NCBI GenBank assembly: GCA_965203565.1
Contig: OZ241896.1
Location: 681,707-745,706 of the forward strand
Reading direction: 5' to 3'
Source: Vicinamibacterales bacterium
Lineage (GTDB): Bacteria; Acidobacteriota; Vicinamibacteria; Vicinamibacterales; UBA8438
DNA: 64,000 nt
The position numbers were made by a program, and so were the translations under genes. The notes under the pieces were generated by a model. The model was not told the origin of the DNA and ran no database searches. It saw nothing but the letters and a program-made list of their open reading frames with translations. Positions 29,458-59,928 of the stretch are shown piece after piece. The number at the start of each line of letters is the position of its first letter. The stretch's first letter is position 1.

Positions 29458-31581
29458 TCACGAATCGGGCGCTTCGAACACCCACAGGGTGGCGCCGCGG
29501 TCGGACGGGTTCCGGATCTCCGGCGCCATGATCGAGTAGGCGCCGGTCAGGTATCCGCCGCCGCCGGTGATGGCGGCGACGTACTGCCGGCCGTTCGCTG
29601 CGAAGGTGATCGGCGGCGCGTTCGGAACGTCGTCCAGCCGGGTGGCCCACAGGCGCTCTCCGGTCGCGGCGTCGTACGCGCTCAGCCGCCGGTCGAGCGC
29701 GCCGGCGAACAGCAGACCTCCGGCGGTGACCAGGGCGCCGGTCGTCTGCGGGGCGCGCTGCCGGGCTATCCAGACCGTCTCCTGCGTCTCCAGGTTGACC
29801 GCCTCCACCCGCCCGTAGTTGCCGTCGCTCTCGGGCCGGGGCCGCACCGTCCAGCGGACGCCGGTCGACAGGCTGCCGCGCTCGTCCTCGGCCACCGGCA
29901 CGAGGTCCATGCACGCCTCCACGATCGGGACGTACACGATCTTCGTCTCCGGGTCGTAGGCGGTCGGCGACCAGCTCCGGCCGCCGCCGACGTGCGGGCA
30001 GACCATCTTCGTCTCGCCGTCGCCGGGGATCAGCCGCGGGTCGACGAACTTCTCGCCGGTCACCGGGTCGATCCCGGTGATCCCGTTCTGGAGCCCGAGG
30101 TCGATGGACGAGACGTACCGGCCGGAGCCGGTCTCGACGATGTCGAAGATCGCCTGCTTGCCGGCGGTCACCACCACGCTGGTCGGGACGCCGCCGACCG
30201 GCAGCTCGACGATCTGCCGCTCGAACGCCCAGTCGAGGTCCCACTGGCCGTTCGCCTGGTGCTGGAAGTGCCAGGCCAGCTCGCCCGTGTCCGGACGGAT
30301 GGCGAGCGTGGTGTCGAGATAGAGCGCGTCGTTCGTGATCCCGTCCCGTCCCACCGGGTCGCGGAGCGGGCCGGTGTCGTACGTGTTGCCCGGTCCGAAG
30401 AACGCGAGGTTGCTCGCCGGGTCGTAGCTGCCGGGAATCCAGACCGAGCCGCCGTTGCGGTCCTCGTCGGCGAGTCCGTTCCAACTGTTCCCGCCGGGGG
30501 CGTCCGGGGGCGGGATGGTGCGGAACCGCCAGCGCTCGTCGCCGGTCTCGAGGTCGAGCCCCACGACGTAGTTGCCGCCCGCGGCGCGGCCGGTCGTCCC
30601 GACCATCACCGTGCCGCCGGCCGCCAGGGCGCCGCCGGTCATCCGCATCCGGCTCTCGGGGTCGGCGACCTGCCGCTCCCACTCGACGTCGCCGGTCCGG
30701 ACGTCGAGGGCGACCACGTGCAGGTCGGAGGTCGGCACGTACAGCCGTTCGCCGTAGATCGCCATGCCCCGCTTGAGGCTCGGCGCGACGTCCCGCGGCA
30801 GGCGGCGCGCGTACTCCCAGAGCAGGTCGCCGGCGGCGGCGTCGAGCGCCTGGACCCTGTCGCCGTAGCCGTGCACGAACAGGACGCCGTCGTGCACGAT
30901 CGGCGTCGACTCGTTCGGGCCGGGCGGCAGCGCCCACGACCAGGCGACGCGCAGGCGGCCGACGTTCGACCGGTCGATCCGGTCGAGCGGGCTGTAGCCG
31001 GACGCGTCGTAGGTGCGCCGCCACAGCAGCCAGTCGCCGTCGCCGGGGCGTTTCAGCATCGCGTCGGTCACCGGGCGGATGGCGTCGAGCGGATTCCGCC
31101 GCGCCGGGACCGGCGGCAGGACGACGCCGGCCGAGAGTCCGCCGCCCTGCGACGTCCAGCCGGGCGACAGCATCGCCAGGGCCGCCGGGTCCGACGGCAG
31201 CTCGGCCGGGCCGGCCTCGACGCCGTTCTCCTGAAGCATGAACGCCGTCAGCGCGACGTACGTCTCGTCGCCGAGCGCGCCCGGCCGGTCCTGCGGCATC
31301 GTCGCCGCGGTTTCGGCAAGCAGCGCTTCGACCGGCCGCACGCGCCACTTTTCCCGAAAGGCGATTCCCCGGAGCGGCGGCGCGAACGGGCCGTCGTCGA
31401 GGTTGTCGCCGTGGCACGAGGCGCAGTGCCGCCGGTAGGCGGCCAGCCCGGCGTCGGCCTGCTCGGCGGTGTAAGTCGCCGGCCCCCGCTCCGGCTGCTG
31501 CTGCGCCGGCGCCGGCAGGGGACTGATCCAGACGAGCAGCGCGATAGGAACGGCCGGGATCGTTCGACGGCTCGGTGTCAT
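29458..31581 (-). CDS. PQQ-dependent dehydrogenase with N-terminal cytochrome c domain (second paralogue)
   Basis: Signal MTPSRRTIPAVPIALLVWISPLPAPAQ, CASCH heme motif, PVTDAMLKRPGDGDWLLWRRTYDASGYSPLDRIDRSNVGRLRVAWSW. Its ATG overlaps the stop of GT-C copy 1 as ATGA. Confidence 0.85.
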   Translation of the reverse strand: MTPSRRTIPAVPIALLVWISPLPAPAQQQPERGPATYTAEQADAGLAAYRRHCASCHGDNLDDGPFAPPLRGIAFREKWRVRPVEALLAETAATMPQDRPGALGDETYVALTAFMLQENGVEAGPAELPSDPAALAMLSPGWTSQGGGLSAGVVLPPVPARRNPLDAIRPVTDAMLKRPGDGDWLLWRRTYDASGYSPLDRIDRSNVGRLRVAWSWALPPGPNESTPIVHDGVLFVHGYGDRVQALDAAAGDLLWEYARRLPRDVAPSLKRGMAIYGERLYVPTSDLHVVALDVRTGDVEWERQVADPESRMRMTGGALAAGGTVMVGTTGRAAGGNYVVGLDLETGDERWRFRTIPPPDAPGGNSWNGLADEDRNGGSVWIPGSYDPASNLAFFGPGNTYDTGPLRDPVGRDGITNDALYLDTTLAIRPDTGELAWHFQHQANGQWDLDWAFERQIVELPVGGVPTSVVVTAGKQAIFDIVETGSGRYVSSIDLGLQNGITGIDPVTGEKFVDPRLIPGDGETKMVCPHVGGGRSWSPTAYDPETKIVYVPIVEACMDLVPVAEDERGSLSTGVRWTVRPRPESDGNYGRVEAVNLETQETVWIARQRAPQTTGALVTAGGLLFAGALDRRLSAYDAATGERLWATRLDDVPNAPPITFAANGRQYVAAITGGGGYLTGAYSIMAPEIRNPSDRGATLWVFEAPDS

Positions 31582-33602
31582 GGACGCCTCGCTTCGGCGC
31601 CGATTGCAGGCGCATTGTCGATCCGGATCGTCTCCTCCCACAGAGCGGTCCAGACGTCGCCGTTCTTCTCGGTCTGTCCGGTCCTGACGTGATCGACGGC
31701 GTACTCCGGCAGCCGAACGGCGGCGAGGCACTTCCCGTCGAACAGCGCCTGGGCGGGCAGGTTGAAATCCCGGTTGTCGAAACCGTCTCGAACGTGGTCG
31801 GCGGGCAGGTCGCCCGCGTCCACCGGAACGACGTGCAGGAAGAACCGTGCGCGCGAATCGGCCCGAACGCACGGCGCCCTGGCGTACGTCAGGGCGCCGC
31901 GGGCGGCGTCGAAGCGCACGTCGTAGTACGCTCGAGCCGCCGCCGCGCCCTGCGTCAACGACCGGTACGTCTCGCGGGAGCGATCCAGGTGGAGATCCAC
32001 GCGGGAGTCGTCCAGGAGCGCCGGGTCGAGGCCGTGCAAACTGGCGATCGTGTTGCCGTACACCTTCCTGATCCAGACTCTCGGAGCATGCGTTTCGGGC
32101 GGATTGATCTCCCTCTCGTGGCCGAAGACGAAATCGGAGCGGCCGCGGCACGCTTGCCGATCGGGGTCGGTGAATCTGAACCTGAGCCTCTTTCTTTGCG
32201 CTTCGGAGAGCAGGTGATGATTATTGTGCGATCCTCCCCCCAGGCACAAGCTGGTCGATGGGTGGATTCGCGCCAGATGATGCAGCCCGCCGAGGCGCGC
32301 CGTCTGCCAGTAATCCATCTCGTACTGCGTCCGGAGACGCTCCGGCGTCGTCCTGTCGACGAGGAAATTGAAGTAGACGTTCTGAAGCGGATGGATGCGG
32401 GCCATGACGATCAGGATGCCCGCCGCCGCAACGCCCGCCGCCGCATACGCCCCCCGGCGCGCCCGGGCGGCGTCGCGCGGCGCCAGCAGGCGCAGCCCGG
32501 ACGCCGCCAGCAGCGCGAGCGGCGCGTGCAGGAAATACAGGTGCCGCCACCCGTTGAAGGCGTGCGCGCCCAGCGCCGCCGCGGCGAACGGCGGCGCCGT
32601 CAGACAGGCGGTCAGCAGAAGTTCGAACCGCAGCGGCGTGTTGCGCAGCGCCCGGCCGGGACGCGCGGCGACGCGCCACGCAGCGCCGACGATCCCGACG
32701 CCGCCCAGCAGCAGCGTGAACGGCGGCGTCGTGACCGCCATCCACGTCGGAACGTAACGCCACGGCAGATCGCCCGCGCGAACCAGTCGTCCCTGGAAAA
32801 GTTCCCAGCGATTGGGCGGATGTTCGGAGAGCACCCGGAGCGGCTCGGCGAACTCACGCGGGTCGCTCCACAGGTACGGACTGATCGCGTACAGCGTCGC
32901 GGCCCACGCCGCCCCGAACGCCGCGGTCGTCTTCAGAACGCGCCGCCGGCCGCTCCACTGCGCCGCGCAGAGCAGGTCGCACGCCCGCATGCCCAGCACG
33001 GCGGCGAAGAGCATCACGCCCATGATGCGCAGGTTCGTCAGCACCGCCGTTCCCATCCCCAGGATCACGAACACGCGGACCGTGTTCTTCTCGAACGCCC
33101 GGTGGACCAGATACAGCGCGATCATGAACATCGACAGGAAGGGAACGTCCTTGCTGTTGAAGAACGCGTGGGCGTACAGGCGGGGATGGAGCAGGAACAG
33201 CAGCATGGCAAGGAGAGCGAGCGGCCCGTCGCCGAACAGCCGGCGGGCGAGCAGGAAGCAGGCGAAGCCGCCGCACAGCCAGAACAGGTGGGTGGCGCAG
33301 TAACGCAGCAGATACGCCGTGCGGCGGCTGTCGTCGAGGCCGAGCGCCCGCTCGGCGAGGAGCAGCGGCAGCTCGAACGCCACGCCGTAATACTGGTCGT
33401 AGGCCCTGAGACGATGGCCGCCGCCGACGGACAGTGCGCCGTCGTCGCCCAAGGCGTACTCCAGGTTCGCCGCGGCGATTGACCGCTGTTGTTGCGTGTC
33501 CTCCGAGATGCCGTAGTCGCCCACGACGGCGGCGCCCGCGGCGGCGAAGAGGACGAGGATCGCGACGGCCCAGGTCCGACAGGAAATGCGGGAAATCGTC
33601 AT
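31578..33602 (-). CDS. polytopic GT-C (ArnT/PMT-like) membrane protein with soluble C-terminal domain, array copy 1
   Basis: MTISRISCRTWAVAILVLFAAAG..., YYGVAFELPLLLAER, LFLLHPRLYAHAFFNSKDVPFL, and C-terminal FFLHVVPVDAGDLP...RLPEYAVDHVRTGQ. ATGA overlaps at both ends. Confidence 0.6.
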   Translation of the reverse strand: MTISRISCRTWAVAILVLFAAAGAAVVGDYGISEDTQQQRSIAAANLEYALGDDGALSVGGGHRLRAYDQYYGVAFELPLLLAERALGLDDSRRTAYLLRYCATHLFWLCGGFACFLLARRLFGDGPLALLAMLLFLLHPRLYAHAFFNSKDVPFLSMFMIALYLVHRAFEKNTVRVFVILGMGTAVLTNLRIMGVMLFAAVLGMRACDLLCAAQWSGRRRVLKTTAAFGAAWAATLYAISPYLWSDPREFAEPLRVLSEHPPNRWELFQGRLVRAGDLPWRYVPTWMAVTTPPFTLLLGGVGIVGAAWRVAARPGRALRNTPLRFELLLTACLTAPPFAAAALGAHAFNGWRHLYFLHAPLALLAASGLRLLAPRDAARARRGAYAAAGVAAAGILIVMARIHPLQNVYFNFLVDRTTPERLRTQYEMDYWQTARLGGLHHLARIHPSTSLCLGGGSHNNHHLLSEAQRKRLRFRFTDPDRQACRGRSDFVFGHEREINPPETHAPRVWIRKVYGNTIASLHGLDPALLDDSRVDLHLDRSRETYRSLTQGAAAARAYYDVRFDAARGALTYARAPCVRADSRARFFLHVVPVDAGDLPADHVRDGFDNRDFNLPAQALFDGKCLAAVRLPEYAVDHVRTGQTEKNGDVWTALWEETIRIDNAPAIGAEARRP

Positions 33603-35575
33603 GGCCGCAACGGACGCATCCGGATCGTCTCCTCCCACAGGGCGGTCCAGACGCCGTCCTTTCTCTCGGTCTGTCCGGTCCTGACGTGATCGACGGCGTA
33701 CTCCGGCAACCGAACGGTGATGAGGCACTTCCCGTCGAACAGCGCCTGATCGGGCAGGTTGAAGTCCAGGTTGTCGTACCCGTCTCGAACGCGGTCGCCG
33801 GGGAGGTCGTCCGCGTCCACGGGAACGACGTGCAGAAAGAAACGCGCGGCCATGTCGGTCCGGACGCACGGCGCCCTGGCGTACGTCAGGGCGCCGCGGG
33901 CGGCGTCGAGGTATACGTCGTAGCGCATGCGAGCAGCCGGCGCGCCCTGCGTCAACGACCGGTGCGTCTCGCGGAAGCGATCCAGGTGGAGACCTACGCG
34001 GGAGTCGTCCAGGAGCGTCGGGTTGAGGCCGTACATCCTGACAATCGTGTTGCCGTACACCTTTCTGACCCGGACTTCCGGGACATGCGCCTCCAGCTTG
34101 CGCGCATGCCGCGGAGGAGCGCCGACGACGAAGTCGGCGTGACGGCCGCGGCACGCTCGTCCGGAGCGGATTCTCTTTTTCTGCATTTCGGAAAGAAGCC
34201 CCTGATTACGCCTTCCTCCGGTCACGCACAAATTGGTCGACGGGTAGGTCTGCGCCAGATGACGCAGCGCGCCGAGGCTCGTCGTATCCCAGTAATTCAT
34301 GTCGTACTGCGTCCGAAGACGCTCCGGCGTCGTCCTGTCGACGAGGAAATTGAAGTAGACGTTCTGATACGGATGAATGCGGGCCATGGCGATCAGGATG
34401 CCCGCCGCCGCGACGCCCGCCGCCGCATACGTCCCTCGGCGCGCCCAGGCGGGGTCGCCCGCCGCCAGCAGGCGCAGCCCGGACGCCGCCAGCAGGCAGA
34501 GCGGCGCGTACAGGAAATACAGGTGCCGCCACCCGTGGTAGACGTGCGCGCCCAGCGCCGCCACGGCGAGCGGCGGCGCCGCCAGACAGGCGGCCGTCAG
34601 GCATTCCAGCCGCAGCGTCGTGTTGCGCAGCGCCAGACCGGGACGCGCGGCGCCGCGCCACGCAACGCCGACGACTCCGACGCCGGCCAGCAGCAGCGTG
34701 AACGGCGGCGTCGTGATGGCGACCCACGTCGGAACGTAGCGCCACGGCAGATCGTCCGAATGAATCATCCTGCCCTGAAAGAGTGGCCGGAGAATGGACG
34801 GATGTTCGGAGAGGACCCGGAGCGCCTCGGCGAACTCACGCGGATCGCTCCACAGGTACGGACTGATCGCGTACAGCGTCGCCGCGCCCGCCGCAACGAA
34901 CGCCGCGGTCGTCTTCAGAATGCGCCTGCGCCCGCTCCACTGCGCAGCATGAAGCAGGTCCAGCGCCCGCATGCCCAGCACGGCGGCGACGAGCATCACG
35001 CCCATGATGCGGAGGTTCGTCAGCACCGCCGTTCCCGCCCCCAGGATCACGAACGCGCGGACCGTGTCCTTCTCGAACGCCCGGTGGACCAGGTGCAGCG
35101 CGATCATGAACATCGACAGGAAGGTGACGTCCTTGCTGTTGAAGAACGCGTGGGCGTACAGGCGGGGATGGAGCAGGAACAGCAGCATCGCCAGGAGAGC
35201 GAGCGGCCCGCTTCCGAACAGCCGGCGGGCGAGCAGGAAGCAGGCGAAGCCGCCGCACAGCCAGAACAGGTGGGTGGCGCCGTGGCGGAACAGATGCGCC
35301 GTGCGGCTGTCGTCGAGGCCGAGCGTCCGCTCGGCGAGCAGCAGCGGCAGCTCGAACGCCATGCCGTAGTACCGGTCGTGGGCCCGGGGAAGATTGTGGG
35401 CGGACAGTGCGTCGTCGCGGCCCAGGATGTACTCCAGGTTCGCCGCGGCGATTCGCCGCTGGCGGTCCGCGTCCACCGAGACGCCGTAGTCGCCCACGAC
35501 GGCGGCGCCCGCGGCGGCGAAGAGGACGAGGATCGCGACGGCCCAGGTCCGGCAGGAGATGCGGGAAATCGTCAT
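33599..35575 (-). CDS. GT-C-like membrane protein, array copy 2
   Basis: Paralogue of copy 1 with the same conserved blocks. ATGA overlaps with copies 1 and 3. Confidence 0.6.
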   Translation of the reverse strand: MTISRISCRTWAVAILVLFAAAGAAVVGDYGVSVDADRQRRIAAANLEYILGRDDALSAHNLPRAHDRYYGMAFELPLLLAERTLGLDDSRTAHLFRHGATHLFWLCGGFACFLLARRLFGSGPLALLAMLLFLLHPRLYAHAFFNSKDVTFLSMFMIALHLVHRAFEKDTVRAFVILGAGTAVLTNLRIMGVMLVAAVLGMRALDLLHAAQWSGRRRILKTTAAFVAAGAATLYAISPYLWSDPREFAEALRVLSEHPSILRPLFQGRMIHSDDLPWRYVPTWVAITTPPFTLLLAGVGVVGVAWRGAARPGLALRNTTLRLECLTAACLAAPPLAVAALGAHVYHGWRHLYFLYAPLCLLAASGLRLLAAGDPAWARRGTYAAAGVAAAGILIAMARIHPYQNVYFNFLVDRTTPERLRTQYDMNYWDTTSLGALRHLAQTYPSTNLCVTGGRRNQGLLSEMQKKRIRSGRACRGRHADFVVGAPPRHARKLEAHVPEVRVRKVYGNTIVRMYGLNPTLLDDSRVGLHLDRFRETHRSLTQGAPAARMRYDVYLDAARGALTYARAPCVRTDMAARFFLHVVPVDADDLPGDRVRDGYDNLDFNLPDQALFDGKCLITVRLPEYAVDHVRTGQTERKDGVWTALWEETIRMRPLRP

Positions 35576-37602
35576 GGCCGCAACGGACGCATCCGGATCG
35601 TCTCCTCCCACAGAGCGGTCCAGACGCCGTCCTTTCTCTCGGTCTGTCCGGTCCTGACGTGATCGACGGCGTACTCCGGCAACCGAACGGTGATGAGGCA
35701 CTTCCCGTCGAACAGCGCCTGATCGGGCAGGTTGAAGTCCAGGTTGTCGTACCCGTCTCGAACGTGGTCACCGGGGAGGTCGTCCGCGTCCACGGGAACG
35801 ACGTGCAGAAAGAAACGCGCGGCCATGTCGGTCCGGACGCACGGCGCCCTGGCGTACGTCAGGGCGCCGCGGGCGGCGTCGAGGTATACGTCGTAGCGCA
35901 TGCGAGCAGCCGGCGCGCCCTGCGTCAACGACCGGTGCGTCTCGCGGAAGCGATCCAGGTGGAGACCCGCGCGGGAGTCGCCCAGGAGCGTCGGGTTGAG
36001 GCCGTACATCCTGACGATCGTGTTGCCGTACACCTTTCTGACCCGGACTTCCGGGACATACGCCTCCAGCTTGCGCGCATGCCGCGAATGAGCGACGACG
36101 ACGAAGTCGGCGTGACAGCCGTGCGCTCGTCCGGAGCGGATTCTCTTTTTCTGCATTTCGGAAAGAAGCCGCCGATTACGCCTTCCTCCGGTCACGCACA
36201 AGTTGGTCGACGGCCAGGTCTGCGCCAGATGACGCAGCGCGCCGAGGCTCGCCGTCTCCCAGTAATTCATGTCGTACTGCGTCCGGAGACGCTCCGGCGT
36301 CGTCCTGTCGACGAGGAAATTGAAGTAGACGTTCTGAAGCGGATGAATGCGGGCCATGGCGATCAGGATGCCCGCCGCCGCGACGCCCGCCGCCGCATAC
36401 GTCCCTCGGCGCGCCCAGGCGGCGTCGCCCGCCGCCAGCAGGCGCAGCCCGGACGCCGCCAGCAGGGAGAACGGCGCGTGCAGGAAATACAGGTGCCGCC
36501 ACTCGTCGTAGGTGTGCGCGCCCAGCGCCGCCACGGCGAGCGGCGGCGCCGTCAGACAGGCGGTCAGCAGAAGTCCGAACCGCAGCGGCGTGTTGCGAAG
36601 CGCCCGGCCGGGACGCGCGGCGGCGCGCCACGCAACGCCGACGATCCCGACGCCGCCCAGCAGCAACGTGAACGGCGGCGTCGTGATGGCGACCCACGTC
36701 GGAACGTAGCGCCACGGCAGATCGTCCGAATGAATCATCCTGCCCTGAAAGAGTTGCCGGATATGAAGCGGATGTTCGGAGAGGACCCGGAGCGCCTCGG
36801 CGAACTCCCGCGGATCGCTCCACAGGTACGGACTGATCGCGTACAGCGTCGCGGCGCCCGCCGCCGCGAATGCGCCGGCCGTCTTCAGAACGCGCCGGCG
36901 TTCGCTCCGCTCCGCGGCATGGAGCAGGTCCAACGCCCGCATGCCCAGCACGGCGGCGAAGAGCATCACGCCCATGATGCGCAGGTTCGTCAGCACCGCC
37001 GCCGCCGCTCCCAGGACCACGAACGCGCGGACCGTGTCCTTCTCGAACGCCCGGTGGGCCAGGTGCAGCGCGATCATGAACATCGCCAGGAAGGGGACGT
37101 CCTTGCTGTTGAAGAACGCGTGGGCGTACAGGCGGGGGTGGAGCAGGAACAGCAGCATCGCCAGGAGAGCGAGCGGTCCGCTGTCGAACAGCCGGCGGGC
37201 GAGCAGGAAACAGGCGAAGCCGCCGCACAGCCAGAACAGGTGGGTGGCGCCGTGGCGGAACAGATGCGCCGTGCGGCTGTCGTCGAGGCCGAGCGTCCGC
37301 TCGGCGAGCAGCAGCGGCAGCTCGAACGCCATGCCGTAGTACCGGTCGTGGGCCCAGGGAAAAAGATTGTGGGCGGACAGTGCGTCGTCGTCGCCCAGGG
37401 CGTACTCCAGGTTCGCCGCGGCGATTCGCCGCTGTGGGTCCGCGTCCTCCGAGATGCCGTAGTCGCCCACGACGGCGGCGCCCGCGGCGGCGAAGAGGAC
37501 CAGGATCGCGACGGCCCAGCAGCCCGTGGCAAAATCCCCGCTGCATTCGACGGGCGCTGCATCCCGGCTGAACTGCGTTGTTCGTCGGTCGAATATGGCC
37601 AA
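35572..37602 (-). CDS. GT-C-like membrane protein, array copy 3, N-terminus supplied by the MITE (TTG start)
   Basis: Starts MAIFDRRTTQFSRDAAPVECSGDFATGC (element-encoded), then WAVAILVLFAAAG (normal residue 12 onward). AGGAGG lies 7 nt upstream of the TTG. Confidence 0.5.
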   Translation of the reverse strand: MAIFDRRTTQFSRDAAPVECSGDFATGCWAVAILVLFAAAGAAVVGDYGISEDADPQRRIAAANLEYALGDDDALSAHNLFPWAHDRYYGMAFELPLLLAERTLGLDDSRTAHLFRHGATHLFWLCGGFACFLLARRLFDSGPLALLAMLLFLLHPRLYAHAFFNSKDVPFLAMFMIALHLAHRAFEKDTVRAFVVLGAAAAVLTNLRIMGVMLFAAVLGMRALDLLHAAERSERRRVLKTAGAFAAAGAATLYAISPYLWSDPREFAEALRVLSEHPLHIRQLFQGRMIHSDDLPWRYVPTWVAITTPPFTLLLGGVGIVGVAWRAAARPGRALRNTPLRFGLLLTACLTAPPLAVAALGAHTYDEWRHLYFLHAPFSLLAASGLRLLAAGDAAWARRGTYAAAGVAAAGILIAMARIHPLQNVYFNFLVDRTTPERLRTQYDMNYWETASLGALRHLAQTWPSTNLCVTGGRRNRRLLSEMQKKRIRSGRAHGCHADFVVVAHSRHARKLEAYVPEVRVRKVYGNTIVRMYGLNPTLLGDSRAGLHLDRFRETHRSLTQGAPAARMRYDVYLDAARGALTYARAPCVRTDMAARFFLHVVPVDADDLPGDHVRDGYDNLDFNLPDQALFDGKCLITVRLPEYAVDHVRTGQTERKDGVWTALWEETIRMRPLRP

Positions 37603-37677
37603 TATGCTCCCTCCTCACGCCTTGTCAGCCGGGCGCCCCGCCCGTCTCGGTGCGACGCGGGGTTTTACCACGGGCTG
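37520..37677 (-). mobile_element. 158-bp MITE-like element, B-subfamily, inserted after codon 11 of GT-C copy 3 (TSD CCAG/CCAA)
   Basis: TIRs CAGCCCGTGG/CCACGGGCTG. Flanks ggcCCAG|...|CCAAgtcc. Uninterrupted paralogues read ...CGGACCTGGGCC... across the site. Confidence 0.8.
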
Positions 37678-37710
37678 CCAAGTCCGGCAGGACATGCGGG
37701 AAATCGTCAT
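37615..37710 (-). other. orphaned original start of copy 3: 31-codon ORF (MTISRMSCRTW + 20 element-encoded codons)
   Basis: ATG 37710 overlaps the copy-4 stop as ATGA. Its stop TGA sits inside the element's GTGAGGAGGG, 12 nt upstream of TTG 37602. Confidence 0.5.
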
Positions 37711-39737
37711 GGCCGCAACGGACGCATCCGGATCGTCTCCTCCCACAGAGCGGTCCAGACGCCGCCCTTTCTCTCGGTCTGTCCGGTCCTGACGTGGTCG
37801 ACGGCGTACTCCGGCAACCGCATCGTCACGAGGCACTTCCCGTCGAACAGCGCCTGATCGGGCAGGTCGAAATCCAGGTGGTCGAAACCGTAACGCACCT
37901 GGTCGCCGGGCAGGTCGTCCGCGTCCACCGGAACGACGTGCAGGAAGAAACGCGCGGCCATGTCGGTCCGGACGCACGGCGCCTTGGCGTACGTGAGGGC
38001 GCCGCGGGCGGCGTCGAGGTATACGTCGTAGCGCATGCGAGCAGCCGGCGCGCCCTGCGTCAACGACCGGTACGTCTCGCGGAAGCGATCCAGGTGGAGA
38101 TCCGCGCGGGAGTCGCCCAGGAGCGCCGGGTTGACGCCGTACACGCTGGAGATCGTGTTGCCGTACACCTTTCTGACCCGGACTTCCGGAACATGCGCCT
38201 CCGGCTTGCGCGCATGCAGCGGATGAGCGACGACGACGAAGTCGGCGTGACGGCCGCGGCACGCTCGTACGGAGCGGATTCTCTTTTTCTGCATTTCGGA
38301 AAGAAGCCGCCGATTACGCCTTCCTCCGGTCACGCACAAGTTGGTCGACGGGTAGGTCTGCGCCAGATGACGCAGCGCGCCGAAGCCCGTCGTATCCCAG
38401 TAGCTCATGTCGTACTGCGTCCGAAGACGCTCCGGCGTCGTCCTGTCGACGAGGAAATTGAAGTAGGCGTTCTGAAGCGGATGAATGCGGGCCATGGCGA
38501 TCAGGATGCCCGCCGCCGCGACGCCCGCCGCCGCATACGTCCCTCGGCGCATCCAGGCGGGGTCGCGCGCCGCCAGCAGGCGCAGCCCGGACGCCGCCAG
38601 CAGGCAGAGCGGCGCATGCAGGAAATACAGGTGCCGCCACCCGTGGTAGACGTGCGCGCCCAGCGCCGCCACGGCGAGCGGCGGCGCCGCCAGACAGGCG
38701 GCCGTCAGGCATTCCAGCCGCAGCGTCGTGTTGCGCAGCGCCAGACCGGGACGCGCGGCGACGCGCCACGCAACGCCGACGACTCCGACGCCGGCCAGCA
38801 GCAGCGTGAACGGCGGCGTCGTGATGGCGACCCACGTCGGAACGTAGCGCCACGGCAGATAGTCCGGACGAATCATCCTGCCCTGAAAGAGTTGCCGAAG
38901 AGTAGTCGGATGTTCGGAGAGGTCCCGGAGCGCTCCGGCGAACTCGCGCGGGTCGCTCCACAGGTACGGACTGATCGCGTACAGCGTCGCGGCGCCTGTC
39001 GCAGCGAACGCGCCGGCCGTCGCCAGAACGCGCCGGCGTTCGCTCCGCTGCGCCGCGCAGAGCAGGTCGCACGCCCGCATGCCCAGCACGGCGGCGAAGA
39101 ACATCACGCCCATGATGCGGAGGTTCGTCAGCACCGCCGCCGCCCCCCCCAGGATCACGAACGCGCGGACCGTGTCCTTCTCGAACGCCCGGTGGACCAG
39201 GTGCAGCGCGATCATGAACATCGACAGGAAGGTAACGTCCTTGCTGTTGAAGAACGCGTGGGCGTACAGGCGGGGATGGAGCAGGAACAGCAGCATCGCC
39301 AGGAGAGCGAGGGGCCCGCTGTCGAACAGCCGGCGGGCGAGCAGGAAGCAGGCGAAGCCGCCGCACAGCCAGAACAGGTGGGTGGCGCCGTGGCGGAACA
39401 GATGCGCCGTGCGGCTGTCGTCGAGGCCGAGCGTCCGCTCGGCGAGCAGCAGCGGCAGCTCGAACGCCATGCCGTAGTACCGGTCGTGGGCCCGGGGAAG
39501 ATTGTGGGCGGACAGTGCGTCGTCGCGGCCCAGGACGTACTCCAGGTTCGCCGCGGCGATTCGCCGCTGTGGGTCCGCGTCCACCGAGACGCCGTAGTCG
39601 CCCACGACGGCGGCGCCCGCGGCGGCGAAGAGGACGAGAATCGCGACGGCCCAGCAGCCCGTGGCAAAATCCCCGCTGCATTCGACGGGCGCTGCATCCC
39701 GGCTGAACTGCGTTGTTCGTCGGTCGAATATGGCCAA
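37707..39737 (-). CDS. GT-C-like membrane protein, array copy 4, N-terminus supplied by the MITE (TTG start)
   Basis: Same architecture as copy 3. Confidence 0.5.
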   Translation of the reverse strand: MAIFDRRTTQFSRDAAPVECSGDFATGCWAVAILVLFAAAGAAVVGDYGVSVDADPQRRIAAANLEYVLGRDDALSAHNLPRAHDRYYGMAFELPLLLAERTLGLDDSRTAHLFRHGATHLFWLCGGFACFLLARRLFDSGPLALLAMLLFLLHPRLYAHAFFNSKDVTFLSMFMIALHLVHRAFEKDTVRAFVILGGAAAVLTNLRIMGVMFFAAVLGMRACDLLCAAQRSERRRVLATAGAFAATGAATLYAISPYLWSDPREFAGALRDLSEHPTTLRQLFQGRMIRPDYLPWRYVPTWVAITTPPFTLLLAGVGVVGVAWRVAARPGLALRNTTLRLECLTAACLAAPPLAVAALGAHVYHGWRHLYFLHAPLCLLAASGLRLLAARDPAWMRRGTYAAAGVAAAGILIAMARIHPLQNAYFNFLVDRTTPERLRTQYDMSYWDTTGFGALRHLAQTYPSTNLCVTGGRRNRRLLSEMQKKRIRSVRACRGRHADFVVVAHPLHARKPEAHVPEVRVRKVYGNTISSVYGVNPALLGDSRADLHLDRFRETYRSLTQGAPAARMRYDVYLDAARGALTYAKAPCVRTDMAARFFLHVVPVDADDLPGDQVRYGFDHLDFDLPDQALFDGKCLVTMRLPEYAVDHVRTGQTERKGGVWTALWEETIRMRPLRP

Positions 39738-39812
39738 TATGCTCCCTCCTCACGCCTTGTCAGCCGGGCGCCCCGCCCGTCTCGGTGCGACGCGGGGTTT
39801 CACCACGGGCTG
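39655..39812 (-). mobile_element. 158-bp MITE-like element, B-subfamily, inserted after codon 11 of GT-C copy 4 (TSD CCAG)
   Basis: Flanks ggcCCAG|CAGCCCGTGG...CCACGGGCTG|CCAGgtcc. Confidence 0.8.
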
Positions 39813-39845
39813 CCAGGTCCGACAGGACATGCGGGAAATCGTCAT
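39750..39845 (-). other. orphaned original start of copy 4: 31-codon ORF reading into the MITE
   Basis: Identical arrangement to 37615-37710. ATG 39845 overlaps the copy-5 stop. Confidence 0.5.
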
Positions 39846-41791
39846 GGCCGCAACGGACGCATCCGGATCGTCTCCTCCCACAGAGCGGTCCAGACGCCGT
39901 CCTTCCTCTCGGTCTGTCCGGTCCTGACGTGGTCGACGGCGTACTCCGGCAACCGAACGGTGATGAGGCACTTCCCGTCGAACAGCGCGTGATCGGGCAG
40001 GTTGAAGTCCAGGTTGTCGTACCCGTCTCGACCGCGGTCGCCGGGGAGGTCGTCCGCGTCCACGGGAACGACGTGCAGGAAGAAACGTGCGGCCAAGTCG
40101 GCCGTAGCGCACGGCGCCCTGGCGTACGTGAGGGCGCCGCGGGCGGCGTCGAGGTATACGTCGTAGCGCATGCGAACCGCTGGCGCGCCCTGCGTCAACG
40201 ACCGGTGCGTCTCGCGGAAACGGTCCACGTGAAAATCGTCCAGCAGCGCCAGGTTGAGACCGTACAAACTGGCGATCGTGTTGCCGTACGCCTTTCTGGT
40301 CCAGACGGCCGGAGCATGCGTTTCGGACGAACCCCTCCGGGCGGTGGCGCCTGCGAAGACGAAATCGGAGCGGCCGCGGCGTCTGAATCTGATCCTCTTT
40401 CTCTGCGCTTCGGAGAGAAGGTGATGGTCACGCGCTCTCCCCGTCACGCACAAACGGGTCGACGGCCAGGTTCGCGCCAGGTGATGCAGCCCGCCGAAGC
40501 GCGTCATCTCCCAGAGATTCATCTCGTACTGCGTCCGGAGATGCTCCGGCGTCGTCCTGTCGACGAGGAAATTGAAGTAGACGTTCTGAAGCGGATGGAT
40601 GCGCGCCATGGCGATCAGGATGCCCGCCGCCGCGACGCCCGCCGCCGCATACGCTCCTCGGCGCGCCCAGGCCGCGTCGCGCGCCGCCAGCAGGCGCAGC
40701 CCGGACGCCGCCAGCAGCGCGAGCGGCGCATGCAGGAAATACAGGTGCCGCCACCCGTCGTAGGTGTGCGCGCCCAGCGCCACGGCGAGCGGCGGCGCCG
40801 TCAGACAGGCGGCCGCCAGGCATTCGAGCCGCAGCGGCGTGTTGCGAAGCGCCCGGCCGGGACGTGCGGCCGCGCGCCACGCAACGCCGACGACCCCGAC
40901 GCCGCCCAGCAGCAGCGTGAACGGCGGCGTCGTGACCGCCATCCACGTCGGAACGTAGCGCCACGGCAGATCGTCCGAATGAATCATCCTGCCCTGAAAG
41001 ACTTGCCAGGAATGATGCGGATGTTCGGAGAGGACCCGGAGCGCCTCGGCGAACTCACGCGGGTCGCTCCACAGGTACGGACTGATCGCGTACAGCGTCG
41101 CAGCGCATGCCGCCCCGAACGCCGCTGTCGTCTTCAGAACGCGCCGGCGCTCGCTCCACTGCGCAGCGCAGAGCAGGTCGCACGCCCGCATGCCCAGCAC
41201 GGCGGCGAAGAGCATCAGGCCCATGATGCGGAGGTTCGTCAGCACCGCCGCTCCCGCCCCCAGGACCGCGAACGCGCGAACCGTGTCCTTCTCGAACGCC
41301 CGGTGGACCAGGCACAGCGCGATCATGAACATCGCCAGGAAGGGGACGTCCATGCCGTTGAAGAACGCGTGCGCGTACAGGCGGGGGTGGAGCAGGAACA
41401 GCAGCATCGCGGCGAGCGCCGGCGGACCGCTGTCGAACAGCCGGCGGGCGAGCAGGAAGCAGGCGAAGCCGCCGCACAGCCAGAACAGGTGGGTGGCGCA
41501 GTGACGCAGCAGATACGCCGTGCGGCTGTCGTCGAGGCCGAGCGCCCGCTCGGCGAGCAGCAGCGGCGCCTCGAACGCCACGCCGTAGTACCGGTGGTGG
41601 TCCGGCAGGCCGCGAAACGACAACGCGTCGTCGTCGCCCAGGACGTATTCCAGGTTCGCCGCAGCGGTTTTCCGATGTCTTGCCGTGTCCGGCGAAGCGC
41701 CGTAGTCACCCACGACAACGCCGCCCGCGGCGGCGAAGAGGACGAGGATCGCGACGGCCCACGTCCGGCAGGAGATGCGGGAAATCGTCAT
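39842..41791 (-). CDS. GT-C-like membrane protein, array copy 5
   Basis: MTISRISCRTWAVAILVLFAAAGGVVVGDYG... Conserved blocks present. ATGA overlap with copy 6. Confidence 0.6.
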   Translation of the reverse strand: MTISRISCRTWAVAILVLFAAAGGVVVGDYGASPDTARHRKTAAANLEYVLGDDDALSFRGLPDHHRYYGVAFEAPLLLAERALGLDDSRTAYLLRHCATHLFWLCGGFACFLLARRLFDSGPPALAAMLLFLLHPRLYAHAFFNGMDVPFLAMFMIALCLVHRAFEKDTVRAFAVLGAGAAVLTNLRIMGLMLFAAVLGMRACDLLCAAQWSERRRVLKTTAAFGAACAATLYAISPYLWSDPREFAEALRVLSEHPHHSWQVFQGRMIHSDDLPWRYVPTWMAVTTPPFTLLLGGVGVVGVAWRAAARPGRALRNTPLRLECLAAACLTAPPLAVALGAHTYDGWRHLYFLHAPLALLAASGLRLLAARDAAWARRGAYAAAGVAAAGILIAMARIHPLQNVYFNFLVDRTTPEHLRTQYEMNLWEMTRFGGLHHLARTWPSTRLCVTGRARDHHLLSEAQRKRIRFRRRGRSDFVFAGATARRGSSETHAPAVWTRKAYGNTIASLYGLNLALLDDFHVDRFRETHRSLTQGAPAVRMRYDVYLDAARGALTYARAPCATADLAARFFLHVVPVDADDLPGDRGRDGYDNLDFNLPDHALFDGKCLITVRLPEYAVDHVRTGQTERKDGVWTALWEETIRMRPLRP

Positions 41792-43791
41792 GGCCGCAAG
41801 GGACTTATCCGGATCGTCTCCTCCCACAGAGCGGTCCAGACGTCGCCCTTCTTCTCGGTCTGTCCGGTCCTGACGTGATCGACGGCGTACTCCGGCAATC
41901 GGACGGCGACGAGGCATTTCCCGTCGAACCGCGCCTGCCGGGGCAGGTTGAAGTCCAGGTTGTCGAAACCGTGCCGAACCTGGTCGTCGGGCAGGTCGCC
42001 CGCGTCCACCGGAACGACGTGCAGGAAGAAACGCGCGCGCGAATCGGCCCAAACGCACGGCGCCCTGGCGTACGTCAGGGCGCCGCGGGCGGCGTCGAAG
42101 TACACGTCGTAGCGCGCGCGCGCCGACGGCGCGCCCTGCGTCAACGACCGGTACTTTTCGCGGGAGCGGTCCACGTGAAAATCGTCGAGCAGCGCCGGGT
42201 TGAGGCCGTACAACGTTGTAGAGATCGTGTTGCCGTACGCCTTCCTGGCCCAGACGACCGGAGCATGCGTCTCGGGCGGATCGTTCCCGGTGATTGTTGA
42301 CCAAGGCTCGGCGCCGAAGACGAAATCCACGCGGCCGCGGCACGCTTGCCGCTGGAAATCGGTCAATCTGGCCATGATTCTGTTTCTTTGCGCTTCGGGA
42401 AGCAGCAGTCGATGCCTCGGCTGGGTTCTGGTCATGCACAAATGGGGCGCTGGGTATTTCTGCGTCAGGTGGCGCAGCCCGCCGAGGTACGTAATCTCCA
42501 GGTAGTACATTTGGTACTGCGTTCGAAGACGCTCCGGCGTCGTCCTGTCGACGAGGAAATTGAAGTAGACGTGCTGAAGCGGATGAATGCGGGCCATGGC
42601 GATCAGAATGCCCGCCGCCGCGACGCCCGCCGCCGCATACGCCCCCCGGCGCACCCGGGCGGCGTCGCGCGCCGCCGGCAGGCGCAGCCCGGACGCCGCC
42701 AGCAGCGCGAGCGGCGCGTGCAGGAAATACAGGTGCCGCCACCCGTCGTAGGTGTGCGCGCCCAGCGCCGCCACGGCGAGCGGCGGCGCCGTCAGACAGA
42801 CGGCCGTCAGGCATTCCAGCCGCAGCGGCGTGTTGCGAAGCGCCTGTTCAGGACGCGCGGCCGCGCGCCACGCAACGCCGACGACCCCGACGCAACCCAG
42901 CAGCAGCGTGAACGGCGGCGTCGTGATCGCCATCCACGTCGGAACGTAACGCCACGGCAGATCGTCCGGCCAAACCGTTCGTCCCTGAAAGAGTTGCGGG
43001 ACATGGTTCGGGTGTTCGGAGAAGACCCGGAGCGCCTCGGCGAACTCACGCGGGTCGCTCCACAGGTACGGACTGACCGCGTACAGCGTCGCGGCCCACG
43101 CCGCCGCGAACGCCCCGGTCGTCTTCAGAACGCGCCTGCGCCCGCTCCGCTGCGCGGCATGGAGCAGGTCCAGCGCCCGCATGCCCAGCACGGCGGCGAC
43201 GAGCATCAGACCCATGACGCGGAGGTTCGTCAGCACCGCCGCCGCCGCTCCCAGGACCAAGAACGCGCGGACCGTGTCCTTCTCGAACGCCCGGTGGATC
43301 AGATACAGCGCGATCATGAACATCGACAGGAAGGGAACGTCCTTGCTGTTGAAGAACGCATGGGCGTACAGGCGGGGATGGAGCAGGAACAGCAGCATCG
43401 CCAGGAGAGCGATCGGCCCGCTGTCGAACAGCCGGCGGGCGAGCAGGAAGCAGGCGAAGCCGCCGCACAGCCAGAACAGGTGGGTGGCGCCGTGGCGCAG
43501 CAGGTACGCCGTGCGGCTGTCGTCGCGGCCGAGCGCCCGCTCGGCGAGGAGCAGCGGCAGCTCGAACGCCACGCCGTAATACCGGTCGGAAGCGAAGAGA
43601 TGATAGTCGCCGCCGACGGACAGTGCGTCGTCGTCGCCCAGGACGTACGCCAGGTTCGCCGCGGCGATCAGCTGCTGCTTGGGCTCGTCCACCGTGACGC
43701 CGTAGTCGTCCACGACGGCGGCGCCCGCGGCGGCGAAGAGGACGAGGATCGCGACGGCCCACGTCCAGCAGGAAATGCGGGAAATCGTCAT
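41788..43791 (-). CDS. GT-C-like membrane protein, array copy 6
   Basis: MTISRISCWTWAVAILV... Longer linker before the C-terminal domain. ATGA overlap with copy 7. Confidence 0.6.
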   Translation of the reverse strand: MTISRISCWTWAVAILVLFAAAGAAVVDDYGVTVDEPKQQLIAAANLAYVLGDDDALSVGGDYHLFASDRYYGVAFELPLLLAERALGRDDSRTAYLLRHGATHLFWLCGGFACFLLARRLFDSGPIALLAMLLFLLHPRLYAHAFFNSKDVPFLSMFMIALYLIHRAFEKDTVRAFLVLGAAAAVLTNLRVMGLMLVAAVLGMRALDLLHAAQRSGRRRVLKTTGAFAAAWAATLYAVSPYLWSDPREFAEALRVFSEHPNHVPQLFQGRTVWPDDLPWRYVPTWMAITTPPFTLLLGCVGVVGVAWRAAARPEQALRNTPLRLECLTAVCLTAPPLAVAALGAHTYDGWRHLYFLHAPLALLAASGLRLPAARDAARVRRGAYAAAGVAAAGILIAMARIHPLQHVYFNFLVDRTTPERLRTQYQMYYLEITYLGGLRHLTQKYPAPHLCMTRTQPRHRLLLPEAQRNRIMARLTDFQRQACRGRVDFVFGAEPWSTITGNDPPETHAPVVWARKAYGNTISTTLYGLNPALLDDFHVDRSREKYRSLTQGAPSARARYDVYFDAARGALTYARAPCVWADSRARFFLHVVPVDAGDLPDDQVRHGFDNLDFNLPRQARFDGKCLVAVRLPEYAVDHVRTGQTEKKGDVWTALWEETIRISPLRP

Positions 43792-45815
43792 GGCCGTATC
43801 CGGATCGTCTCCTCCCACAGGGCGGTCCAGACGTCGTCCTTCCTCTCGGTCTGCCCGGTCCTGACGTGATCGACGGCGTACTCCGGCAACCGGACGGCGA
43901 CGAGGCACTTCCCATCGAACTGCGCCTGAACGGGCAGGTTGAAGTCCCGGTTGTCGAAACCGTGCCGAACCTGGTCGTCGGGCAGGTCGCCCGCGTCCAC
44001 CGGAACGACGTGCAGGAAGAAACGCGCGCGCGAATCGGCCCGAACGCACGGCGCCCTGGCGTACGTCAGGGCGCCGCGGGCGGCGTCGAAGTACACGTCG
44101 TAGCGCGCGCGCGCCGACGGCGCGCCCTGCGTCAACGACCGGTACTTTTCGCGGGAGCGGTCCACGTGAAAATCGTCGAGCAGCGCCGAGTTGAGGCCGT
44201 ACAACGTTGTGGAGATCGTGTTGCCGTACGCCTTCCTGGCCCAGACGGCCGGAGCATGCGTCTCGGGCGGATCTTTCTCGGTGATTGTTGACCAAGAATG
44301 GGCGTCGAAAGCGAAATCCAAGCGGCCGCGGCACGCTTGCCGGTAGAAAGCGGTGGATCTGAGCTTGATTCTGTTTCTCTGCGCTTCGGGAAGCAGCAGT
44401 CGATGGCGCGACTGGGTTCTGGTCATGCACAAATGGGGCGGCGGGTAAGTCTGCGTCAGGTGACGCAGCCCGCCGAGGTTCGCCGTCTCCCAGTAGTCCA
44501 TCTCGTACTGCGTCCGGAGATGCTCCGGCGTCGTCCTGTCGATGAGGAAGTTGAAGTAGACGTTCTGATGCGGATGAATGCGCGCCATGGCGATCAGGAT
44601 GCCCGCCGCCGCGACGCCCGCCGCCGCATACGCCCCCCGGCGCACCCGGGTCGCGTCGCGCGCCGCCGGCAGGCGCAGCCCGGACGCCGCCAGCAGCGCG
44701 AGCGGCGCGTGCAGGAAATACAGGTGCCGCCACCCGTCGTAGGTGTTCGCGCCCAGCGCCGCCACGGCGAGCGGCGGCGCCGTCAGGCACGCGGTCAGCA
44801 GAAGTTCGAACCGCAGCGGCGTGTTGCGAAACGCTTGGCCGGGCCGCGCGGCCGCGCGCCACGCAGCGCCGACGACCCCGACGCCGCCCAGCAGCAGCGT
44901 GAACGGCGGCGTCGTGATGGCGACCCACGTCGGAACGTAGCGCCACGGCAGATCGTCCGGATGAACCAGTCGTCCCTGGAAAAGTTGGTATCTGCCATGC
45001 GGATGTTCGGAGAGCCCCCGGAGCGCTTCGGCGAACTCCCGCGGGTCGCTCCACAGGTACGGACTGACCGCGTACAGCGTCGCGGCCCACGCCGCCGCGA
45101 ACGCCGCGGCCGTCTTCAGAACGCGCCTGCGCCCGCTCCGCTGCGCAGCATGGAGCAGGTCCAGCGCCCGCATGCCCAGCACGGCGGCGACGAGCATCAG
45201 ACCCATGACGCGGAGGTTCGTCAGCACCGCCGCCGCCGCTCCCAGGACCAAGAACGCGCGGACCGTGTCCTTCTCGAACGCCCGGTGGACCAGGTGCAGC
45301 GCGATCATGAACGTCGCCAGGAAGGGAACGTCCTTGCTGTTGAAGAACGCGTGGGCGTACAGGCGGGGGTGGAGCAGGAACAGCAGCATCGCCAGGAGAG
45401 CGAGCGGTCCGCTGCCGAACAGCCGGCGGGCGAGCAGGAAGCAGGCGAAGCCGCCGCACAGCCAGAACAGGTGGGTGGCGCCGTGGCGGAACAGATGCGC
45501 CGTGCGGCTGTCGTCGAGGCCGAGCGTCCGCTCGGCGAGCAGCAGCGGCGCCTCGAACGCCACGCCGTAGTACCGATTGTGGGCCTCGGTGAGATTGCGG
45601 GCGGACAGTGCGTCGTCGTCGCCCAGGGCGTACTCCAGGTTCGCCGCGGCGATGCGCCGCTGTGGGTTCGCGTCCTCCGAGACGCCGTAGTCGCCCACGA
45701 CGGCGGCGCCCGCGGCGGCGAAGAGGACGAGGATCGCGACGGCCCAGGTCCGGCAGGAAACGCGGGATCGTCCGCCCTCGATCCGGGTTGAACTCGATCC
45801 GGGTTGAACCGCCAT
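43788..45815 (-). CDS. GT-C-like membrane protein, array copy 7 (first gene of the array, remodelled N-terminus)
   Basis: MAVQPGSSSTRIEGGRSRVSCRTWAVAILV... The canonical ATGACGATT is mutated to GGACGATCC. The new upstream ATG is in frame only because of a 16-nt tandem duplication. Confidence 0.55.
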   Translation of the reverse strand: MAVQPGSSSTRIEGGRSRVSCRTWAVAILVLFAAAGAAVVGDYGVSEDANPQRRIAAANLEYALGDDDALSARNLTEAHNRYYGVAFEAPLLLAERTLGLDDSRTAHLFRHGATHLFWLCGGFACFLLARRLFGSGPLALLAMLLFLLHPRLYAHAFFNSKDVPFLATFMIALHLVHRAFEKDTVRAFLVLGAAAAVLTNLRVMGLMLVAAVLGMRALDLLHAAQRSGRRRVLKTAAAFAAAWAATLYAVSPYLWSDPREFAEALRGLSEHPHGRYQLFQGRLVHPDDLPWRYVPTWVAITTPPFTLLLGGVGVVGAAWRAAARPGQAFRNTPLRFELLLTACLTAPPLAVAALGANTYDGWRHLYFLHAPLALLAASGLRLPAARDATRVRRGAYAAAGVAAAGILIAMARIHPHQNVYFNFLIDRTTPEHLRTQYEMDYWETANLGGLRHLTQTYPPPHLCMTRTQSRHRLLLPEAQRNRIKLRSTAFYRQACRGRLDFAFDAHSWSTITEKDPPETHAPAVWARKAYGNTISTTLYGLNSALLDDFHVDRSREKYRSLTQGAPSARARYDVYFDAARGALTYARAPCVRADSRARFFLHVVPVDAGDLPDDQVRHGFDNRDFNLPVQAQFDGKCLVAVRLPEYAVDHVRTGQTERKDDVWTALWEETIRIRP
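45777..45808. repeat. perfect 2 x 16-nt tandem duplication (CTCGATCCGGGTTGAA) within codons 3-13 of copy 7
   Basis: Read directly. 16 is not a multiple of 3. With one unit, ATG 45815 would be out of frame. Confidence 0.9.
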
Positions 45816-45830: not shown

Positions 45831-45923
45831 ACCGCGCCGGTATACGATGTACGCGGAAGGCTTGCCGATGATCGGACTGCGATGCGGGAGGTTGGTCGCC
45901 GTCGGCGCGGCGCGCGGGCCGCG

Positions 45924-46081
45924 CAGCCCGTGGCAAAATCCCCGCTGCATTCGACGGGCGCTGCATCCCGGCTGAACTGCGTTGTTCGTCGGTCGAATAT
46001 GGCCAATATGCTCCCTCCTCACGCCTTGTCAGCCGGGCGCCCCGCCCGTCTCGGCGCCCCGCGGGGTTTCACCACGGGCTG
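45924..46081 (-). mobile_element. 158-bp MITE-like element, B-subfamily (TSD CGCG)
   Basis: Flanks ggcCGCG|CAGCCCGTGG...CCACGGGCTG|CGCGgcg. Lies between divergent copy 7 and the ACHEGNY paralogue 2. Confidence 0.8.
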
Positions 46082-59910: not shown

Positions 59911-59928
59911 CCAGGGCGAGCCCTTCGG

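Follow-up and report, generated by a model that had tools for sequence, protein, structure and literature searches.

A hairpin MITE family of Vicinamibacterales and a candidate translation start within two tandem glycosyltransferase genes

The Neisseria REP2 and Borrelia plasmid inverted repeats (IRs) donate a ribosome-binding site (RBS) and an ATG to downstream open reading frames (ORFs) (Delihas 2011, PMC3184786). REP2 has no terminal inverted repeats (TIRs); it precedes genes and gives them a complete 5′ region, promoter included. Rickettsia palindromic elements (RPEs) are ~150-bp palindromic repeats that sit in frame within genes that stay functional (reviewed in PMC10969869); their sequence codes for a conserved peptide and is translated without interruption. 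Hairpin MITEs (miniature transposable elements with inverted repeats) that alter the ends of ORFs are known from Coxiella. For the Correia, ERIC and Coxiella QMITE repeats the effects are on promoters or mRNA, with occasional ORF extension, and where coding effects have been documented they consist of C-terminal extensions or internal fusions. Neither "ribosome binding" nor "start codon" appears in a 2024 review of what MITEs do in prokaryotes. Here we describe a 158-bp MITE in a 64,000-nt stretch of Vicinamibacterales bacterium contig OZ241896.1 (72% G+C; hereafter the window), where it interrupts two genes of a glycosyltransferase array and places a Shine-Dalgarno (SD) sequence and a TTG codon in frame with the remainder of each gene.

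The host genes belong to a tandem array of seven intact PMT_2 paralogs, A to G (31578..45800, minus strand), defined by Pfam matches and ORF reading. Each paralog has ~650 to 676 codons, and the Pfam family PMT_2 consists of GT-C membrane glycosyltransferases. At every junction, orphan ATGs included, the stop and start codons overlap as ATGA. Copies B, C, F, and G start MTISRIS...W and run directly into AVAILV..., the first transmembrane helix, with CWTW in copy B and CRTW in copies C, F, and G; they represent the empty site, uninterrupted ...CGGACCTGGGCCGTCGCG.... Copy A, at the head of the array, has a separate N-terminus (...GGRSRVSCRTW). The canonical copies have no SD in range of their ATG, the closest being GGAGGAG 26 nt upstream, and are presumably reliant on termination-reinitiation at the ATGA.

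Copies D and E, which the preliminary description had numbered 4 and 3, carry the element (all positions on the minus strand). In D it occupies 39655..39812, with TIRs CAGCCCGTGG / CCACGGGCTG (nhmmer E = 1.9e-44), and is flanked by the target duplication CTGG (39816-39813 and 39654-39651). In E a 99.4% identical copy (37520..37677) lies between TTGG (37681-37678) and CTGG (37519-37516), the left duplication differing by one synonymous change. The layout of E is the same as that of D, shifted 2135 nt lower. Both insertions separate codon 11 (TGG) from codon 12 (GCC), splitting MTISRMSCRTW from WAVAILV, so the shared site after codon 11 reported in the preliminary description was borne out.

Compared with the empty-site copies, D and E show an alignment gap of 162 nt. 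Since the 158-bp element plus the 4-bp duplication makes 54 codons, the original ATG, the element's TGA and TTG, and the rest of the gene all lie in one frame; given the orientation, an in-frame insertion is a 1-in-3 chance event. The sole stop in this shared frame (sense orientation, D/E subtype) is the TGA in GCGTGAGGAGGG. The orphaned ATG of D (39845-39843) still overlaps the stop of gene C as ATGA (gcggccATGAcg) and opens a 31-codon bridging ORF (39750..39845, the tail of ORF 39750..40112) that reads MTISRMSCRTWQPVVKPRVAPRRAGRPADKA and ends at TGA 39752-39750. The bridging ORF of E (37615..37710) likewise begins with an ATG at 37710 that overlaps the stop of gene D, and it ends at TGA 37617-37615. 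The final A of each TGA is the first A of an AGGAGG, which is followed by a 7-nt spacer and TTG. In D this module spans 39735..39750 (AGGAGG 39750-39745, TTG 39737-39735), in the weakly paired apex of the element's hairpin; in E it spans 37600..37615 (AGGAGG 37615-37610, TTG 37602-37600). The gap from TGA to TTG is exactly 12 nt in both. The geometry of the relay that had been proposed, with its preserved ATGA overlap, 31 codons, and a stop 12 nt before the TTG, is therefore present in both copies.

Read from the TTG, gene D (37707..39737) and gene E (35572..37602) are PMT_2 genes of 676 codons each, and the database call for E (P0001) begins MAIFDRR. The ORF of D begins MAIFDRRTTQFSRDAAPVECSGDFATGC, with 28 element-encoded residues followed by the host protein from W12 (WAVAILV...), which agrees with the earlier claim that AGGAGG-N7-TTG opens the host frame. 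The predicted N-terminal peptide for the starts at 39737 and 37602 is AIFDRRTTQFSR. In both genes the TTG is the only in-frame ATG, GTG, or TTG between the element's TGA and the first transmembrane helix. At the G+C content of the window, 27 codons without a stop are nothing unusual (rough probability estimate, ~0.6).

The inserted repeat is a genuine MITE, a non-autonomous transposable element, as the preliminary description had called it. It has TIRs (CAGCCCGTGGTG.../...CCACGGGCTG) and a 4-bp target duplication, the whole of it forms one long and nearly perfect hairpin, and it contains no transposase gene, its ORFs being incidental open frames only. Its 158 bp also fall within the usual size range of MITEs (less than ~300 bp). 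The window holds six copies, five full and one half. A pattern that combined the left end with a 3′ motif, and contained neither the SD nor the TTG, was run against a single genome for each species and matched at least 94 stretches, nearly all of them in metagenome-assembled genomes of Vicinamibacterales or Vicinamibacteria. With this many copies, the repeat itself is certainly no chance feature. A profile search of the matched loci gave at least 110 full-length matches, corresponding to at least 102 distinct copies with a modal length of 158 bp. Among the matches listed, 66 copies had a perfect 4-bp duplication; this was CTAG in 27 of the 66 and otherwise mostly one transition away (CCAG, CTGG, TCAG, TTAG). 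A 4-bp, CTAG-like (YTAR) target duplication is also that of MITEs derived from the IS5 family. The IS5-type assignment of this element, which we take from general knowledge, uses target and duplication size only.

In the fetched loci, 8-kb windows around the MITEs, no convincing parent autonomous insertion sequence was found; TIR pairs 0.3 to 4 kb apart occurred there, and those looked at were adjacent MITEs. An Rfam scan of the entire window matched no RNA family, and a literature search returned no description of the element. A metagenome scan with the SD/TTG core gave nine matches, nearly all at contig ends and of no use for context statistics. The family, which is structurally conserved and spread through the Vicinamibacterales (Acidobacteriota), appears to be previously undescribed. 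Most members among the matches listed were intergenic or at stop codons. Many of them (L001, L006, L008, L017, L018, L027, L036, L061, and others) lay exactly at the TAG stop of a gene, with CTAG as the target and the stop kept by the left copy of the duplication; in L001 the ATG of the next gene follows 13 nt past the right copy.

We aligned 88 unique copies (loci L001-L094 and the window) and asked how the SD/TGA/TTG module is distributed in the family. The hairpin has a predicted folding energy of −96 kcal/mol (z = −8.2), and the consensus structure comprises 49 base pairs with abundant compensatory changes. TTG stood at the homologous position in 62 copies and TGA in 43, and a GAGG core with a start codon was found in 44. 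The full combination of TGA, AGGAGG, and TTG occurred in 20 of the 88 copies, 15 of these outside the window, so that it is absent from most members. The preliminary description had looked to conservation of the SD and TTG in other copies of the element; this held for the five full copies of the window, all of which keep the module, and failed for the family at large.

The bases of the module follow the hairpin. In the consensus structure column 97 is the partner of the T of TGA (U-A in 39 copies, C-G in 35), column 94 that of the third base of AGGAGG, its second G (G-C in 45, C-G in 35, A-U in 8), and column 82 that of the first T of TTG (U-A in 70, C-G in 15). These three key positions covary with the bases opposite them, which makes the module a by-product of the conserved hairpin rather than a selected initiation cassette. 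The covariation shows it to be an accidental property of one subfamily's hairpin and not an adaptation of the element. The encoded peptide tells the same story: the TTG-frame peptides of the two window subtypes are frame-shifted relative to each other, and no peptide is conserved. At the canonical CTAG target, moreover, the TTG frame is a closed mini-ORF of 28 codons that ends on the TAG of the duplication. The frame is open outward only at off-consensus targets (CTGG, CCAG, TCAG), which are those of the window copies, and the open outward frame therefore cannot be kept as a conserved trait of the element. An evolved function of the SD and TTG, as a mobile initiation cassette selected for survival in genes or for activation of downstream genes, would fit the invariance of the module in the five full window copies, the commonness of the GAGG-type purine run, the divisibility of the 162 bp by three, and the position of four of the five full window copies within the first 3 to 14 codons of genes. 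Set against the rarity of the complete module, the covariation, the shifting peptide, the immediate closure of the frame at the preferred target, and the intergenic or stop-codon location of most members, we consider such an origin improbable.

The alignment also bears on selection at the level of RNA. Paired positions held 325 G-U or U-G cells and 32 A-C or C-A cells, and the sense RNA folded more stably than the antisense RNA in 84 of the 88 copies, by 8.8 kcal/mol on average. This strand-asymmetric wobble and the stabler sense fold suggest selection on the transcribed RNA, beyond the DNA ends alone. The element further contains a sigma-70-like match, CTGACA, 16 nt, and CATATT (39763-39736 and 37628-37601, minus strand), which agrees at 9 of 12 positions; shuffled sequences gave 0.1 such matches per region. 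No intrinsic terminator was found in the element. One could suppose from these features that the core acts as an outward promoter or a structured RNA, and that the effect on D and E is on transcription or mRNA processing. The −10 hexamer overlaps the TTG, however, so that a transcript starting ~7 nt past CATATT would lack the TTG and leave D and E with no in-frame start before the helix. The hexamers also vary with the hairpin, as the SD and TTG do, and a promoter would in any case be compatible with initiation at the TTG on read-through operon transcripts. We regard this account as very unlikely. The promoter of its own that REP2 carries upstream of the donated start has no counterpart here, since the sole promoter-like match would start transcription downstream of the TTG.

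Evidence that an element-borne start can work comes from related genomes and from a second gene of the window. Homologs of D in other assemblies mostly start MTISRISCRTW or MRSVSRISCRTW, and several have element-derived N-termini at the same junction. Two of these, L104 and L107, are syntenic loci of near-identical strains, with synonymous divergence (dS) of only 0.014 to 0.03 in the flanking uvrC, efp, and protease genes. Both carry a 5′-truncated copy of the other subtype at the D/E site, and the original ATG with its 11 codons is lost. The ORF is bounded upstream by the element's TGA, and its only starts before the helix are the element's ATG-TTG right after GGAGGGCGC (GCGTGAGGAGGGCGC-ATG-TTG). 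The gene, the first of its array, is nevertheless intact (676/683 residues), as it is in a 12-member protein cluster. Between L104 and L107 the array orthologs differ at a dS of 0.11, with a ratio of nonsynonymous to synonymous rates (dN/dS) of 0.77.

In the window itself, a copy of the other subtype (c55; 55166..55323, plus strand) splits a SurA-like chaperone gene behind codon 3 (ATG GAC CAG / GTG). This insertion is an independent event, and its orientation and phase match those of the element in D and E. The orphaned ATG of the gene (55147) reads 23 codons to the element's TGA, and the gene, which ends at 56428, shares its frame with the TTG at 55241 and with an internal ATG. Judged from the sequence, AGGAGG-N7-TTG is thus in frame in D, E, and c55. 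The predicted element-derived peptide of the SurA type is HRRSNAAGTSAAGCQVNDWR. The closest element-free SurA-like ortholog (P0124) begins MDRVKG where the window has MDQ/VND, which supports the orphaned ATG as the ancestral start, and element-bearing alleles that are 98 to 99% identical and intact were found in other assemblies. Alleles with and without the element differ strongly in the signal-peptide region and are 99% identical in their mature parts. That the genes of L104, L107, and c55, which have no other start, stay intact makes the element-borne start credible, and the comparison suggests that such a start can be used. The earlier claim of a newly supplied start is to this extent upheld; translation from the TTG itself is what we infer from the comparison.

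The truncated allele of L104 also speaks to another account of D and E, in which the original ATG is still the functional start and the UGA is read through or suppressed at a low level, giving a 54-residue insertion after residue 11. The insertion is indeed exactly 54 codons long with one stop, UGA is the leakiest stop codon, and an antisense copy of the window (c46, below) shows that a 54-residue read-through insert near the N-terminus can persist. Read-through, however, would yield only a few percent of the normal product, no recoding signal is evident and Rfam gave no match, and the gene is kept in L104 without the original ATG. We give this account very little weight.

Were the element-borne start to be used in D and E, ribosomes finishing the upstream paralog would restart at the orphan ATG in the overlapping ATGA and translate the bridge of 31 codons, unwinding the hairpin's 5′ arm on the way. 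They would terminate at the UGA on the AGGAGG and re-initiate 12 nt downstream at the UUG in the apex; alternatively, 30S subunits might bind the ~50-nt weakly paired apex directly. In the folded mRNA context the UUG is predicted to lie in the apical loop, its last two bases with an unpaired probability of 0.99 to 1.0, and the AGGAGG in a weakly paired region. Re-initiation or direct 30S binding at the UUG would be mechanistically ordinary, although both go past the sequence geometry into steps that we infer. In the product, the 11-residue cytoplasmic N-terminus would be swapped for 28 element-encoded residues before an intact first transmembrane helix. The insertion would then be a case of survivorship, tolerated at this position and in this orientation and phase since a usable start happens to be there.

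Several observations weigh against use of the TTG, in addition to the absence of the module from most family members. In the predicted fold, three of the six bases of AGGAGG take part in isolated pairs. As a start codon TTG is weak, and the ORF of D and E must cross the 3′ arm of a very stable hairpin. A long double-stranded stem, as in the Correia elements of Neisseria, is likely to be an RNase III substrate, and cleavage would cut the start off the gene. At L081 (525-1469) TGA, SD, and TTG stand in frame after codon 12 of hypF, and that hypF has an internal deletion and a frameshift. (Its middle is lost, and the acylphosphatase domain runs out of frame into the last 170 residues of the C-terminus; the downstream hypD and hypE look intact.) Finally, dN/dS is high in all pairs of array paralogs (0.55 to 0.83; D-E, 0.77), and dead copies could owe an intact appearance to gene conversion by paralogs that are intact. 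As the high ratio is common to all pairs, selection on D and E specifically is not demonstrable, and dN/dS was dropped as a test of function for these two genes, conversion and diversification swamping the signal.

The most serious competitor is silencing of D and E. The insertion would have separated the coding region from its coupled start, the TTG would not be productively used, and the two genes would be young pseudogenes that look intact through recency and conversion from five intact neighbours. A D-E ratio indistinguishable from 1, obvious conversion tracts, the decay of hypF in the same configuration, the weak start and the hairpin all fit, as does the high redundancy implied by at least 14 paralogs of the array gene on the window's own 3.95-Mb contig. 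Decay has left no mark on the genes themselves, however: D and E each retain 676 intact codons, none of their 126 differences is nonsense (2.4% of possible substitutions would be), and the only two indels between them are of 3 nt each. The element-free copy F has the same dN/dS, which makes the high ratio a property of the family, and the genes of L104, L107, and c55 have stayed intact across strains with no alternative start. We therefore regard silencing as a real but distinctly less probable outcome, and put the chance that D and E are translated from the element's TTG at a little over one half. The explanation as a whole, in which a MITE insertion was tolerated through an element-borne start and re-initiation and was then spread within the array, we hold to be somewhat better than an even bet.

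The counts of frame and peptide across the family were less informative. Composition-based frame calls in the flanks of 105 copies placed the TTG in phase with the downstream gene in ~9 cases and out of phase in 6, a small and noisy sample. When the representative library was searched with the TTG-frame peptide of 33 residues, the matches were Cys-rich repeat proteins of no relation and small ORFs with the peptide internal or C-terminal; this library is clustered at 50%, which hides N-terminal captures, and the search is silent on those.

The same codon has been struck repeatedly in related genomes. L105 has a full antisense copy at the D/E site that is open all the way through. In L106 (6001-6045) a 35-bp antisense element end is fused in frame to the original ATGA-coupled ATG (MTLGAPRGFHHGLL), and L108 (1094-1160) has a further remnant, preceded by a GTG start. 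The protein sequence of one paralog on the contig of the window (P0034) reads MTISRISCRTW-QPV-AVLV, which is possibly the 3-nt scar of a deletion at a microhomology (putatively CCGT) that left CAGCC. The D/E element is 98% identical to c46 and only 80 to 87% identical to those of L104 and L105, which indicates that this codon was hit at least three times independently. In-frame insertions of 162 nt each were found in D, E, c55, c46, L079, and L105.

Within the window, one insertion between codons 11 and 12, with the off-consensus CTGG as its target, would be the simplest reading of D and E, given the same site, the same subtype, and 99.4% identity of the elements. The preliminary description had gone on to argue that the insertion must predate the duplication that gave rise to D and E; the sequences do not force this. 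Element-free F is as close to D (94.5%) and to E (94.9%) as D is to E (93.5%). Informative sites switch partner in blocks: one 150-nt bin contains 18 sites specific to E, and a different bin contains 16 specific to D. Around the junction, over ~100 nt on its upstream side and 500 nt on its downstream side, D, E, and F are almost identical. By this pattern the three genes are conversion mosaics, and a simple tree dating the insertion against the duplication was dropped for that reason. Homology-driven array dynamics, whether duplication, unequal crossing-over, or gene conversion, would account for the element in two paralogs. The data would be compatible with a duplication that followed the insertion, with transfer of the element through conversion or unequal crossing-over, and equally with a conversion that removed it from F. 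The array genes evolve unusually fast, with block-wise conversion between paralogs, and the family is, on these comparisons, a fast-diversifying and conversion-prone one.

Three further copies complete the set in the window. The antisense copy c46 (45924..46081, minus strand; 98% identical to the D and E copies) lies in a plus-strand gene for a secreted protein, with its ATG at 45882, and splits the signal-peptide coding region in its n-region after about codon 14, MREVGRRRRGARAA / ALAGVVLLAAAAPP (the host resumes ALAGVVLL). The host frame is open across the full element, a 54-residue in-frame insert with an internal ATG (MANMLPP). An intergenic copy (c11; 11529..11686, plus strand) lies upstream of a gene for an Rrf2-type regulator, 70 nt from the ATG, and its TTG frame happens to stay open into that gene; a homolog search with the c11 peptide gave no word matches. 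The half copy (59926..60000, minus strand; model positions 4-78) ends exactly at the hairpin apex and adjoins the downstream side of a gene ending at 59910. Database gene calls put starts inside the repeat, with MQRGFCHGL for array copy A (P0027) and MHRRSNAAG for the SurA-like gene (P0121-P0123), and annotated N-termini near the MITE are consequently unreliable.

If the element-borne start is used, the array offers a natural case of an intragenic transposon insertion rescued by signals that the element carries by accident, and MITEs could remodel N-termini and translation-initiation regions in addition to promoters. The outcomes at one codon in related genomes include a full sense copy, a truncated sense copy that now provides the sole start, a full antisense copy through which the frame runs, a remnant of 35 bp joined again to the original ATG, and possibly a 3-nt scar. 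The family is defined in the Vicinamibacterales, a dominant and almost uncultured soil lineage, and it has the practical consequence that gene callers place starts within the repeat. A bolder view would treat the element as a structured-RNA MITE under selection on the sense RNA and as a portable 5′ cassette, which by repeated targeting of the codon before the first transmembrane helix of a fast-diversifying glycosyltransferase array serves as a transposon-driven switch of expression or variation for cell-surface glycosylation. Each time the element inserts, inverts, is truncated, or is lost almost precisely, the choice of translated paralogs and the N-termini they carry would change, and this in a soil phylum that is abundant; we think this view doubtful at best.

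Compared with the systems described above, the element has its closest precedent as a start-donating repeat in REP2 and the Borrelia IRs, with which it shares an RBS and an initiation codon fused to a downstream ORF. It differs from REP2 in having true TIRs and a target duplication, in landing within a coding region, in a start that is accidental to its hairpin, and in a bridging ORF that links it to upstream translation. The RPEs resemble it in that 162 bp, or 54 codons, are added in frame, and the antisense copies c46 and L105 are fully open; unlike an RPE it has no conserved peptide, and the sense D/E subtype stops the frame and must restart it. With the Correia, ERIC, and Coxiella QMITE repeats it shares a size of ~100 to 160 bp, inverted repeats, co-transcription, and a long hairpin, although the target of Correia is TA and that of this element is CTAG with a 4-bp duplication. 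The relay likewise resembles termination-reinitiation coupling at the ATGA overlaps of the array: with a stop 12 nt before an SD-associated start, the same mechanism would be used twice, the second junction having been made, as we propose, by a transposon and not evolved in place. What is new here is a TIR- and duplication-bearing element inside a gene that replaces its N-terminus and initiation region. The principle has precedents and no new category is needed; distinctiveness is added by the relay ORF, and by the series of outcomes that one codon preserves like fossils.

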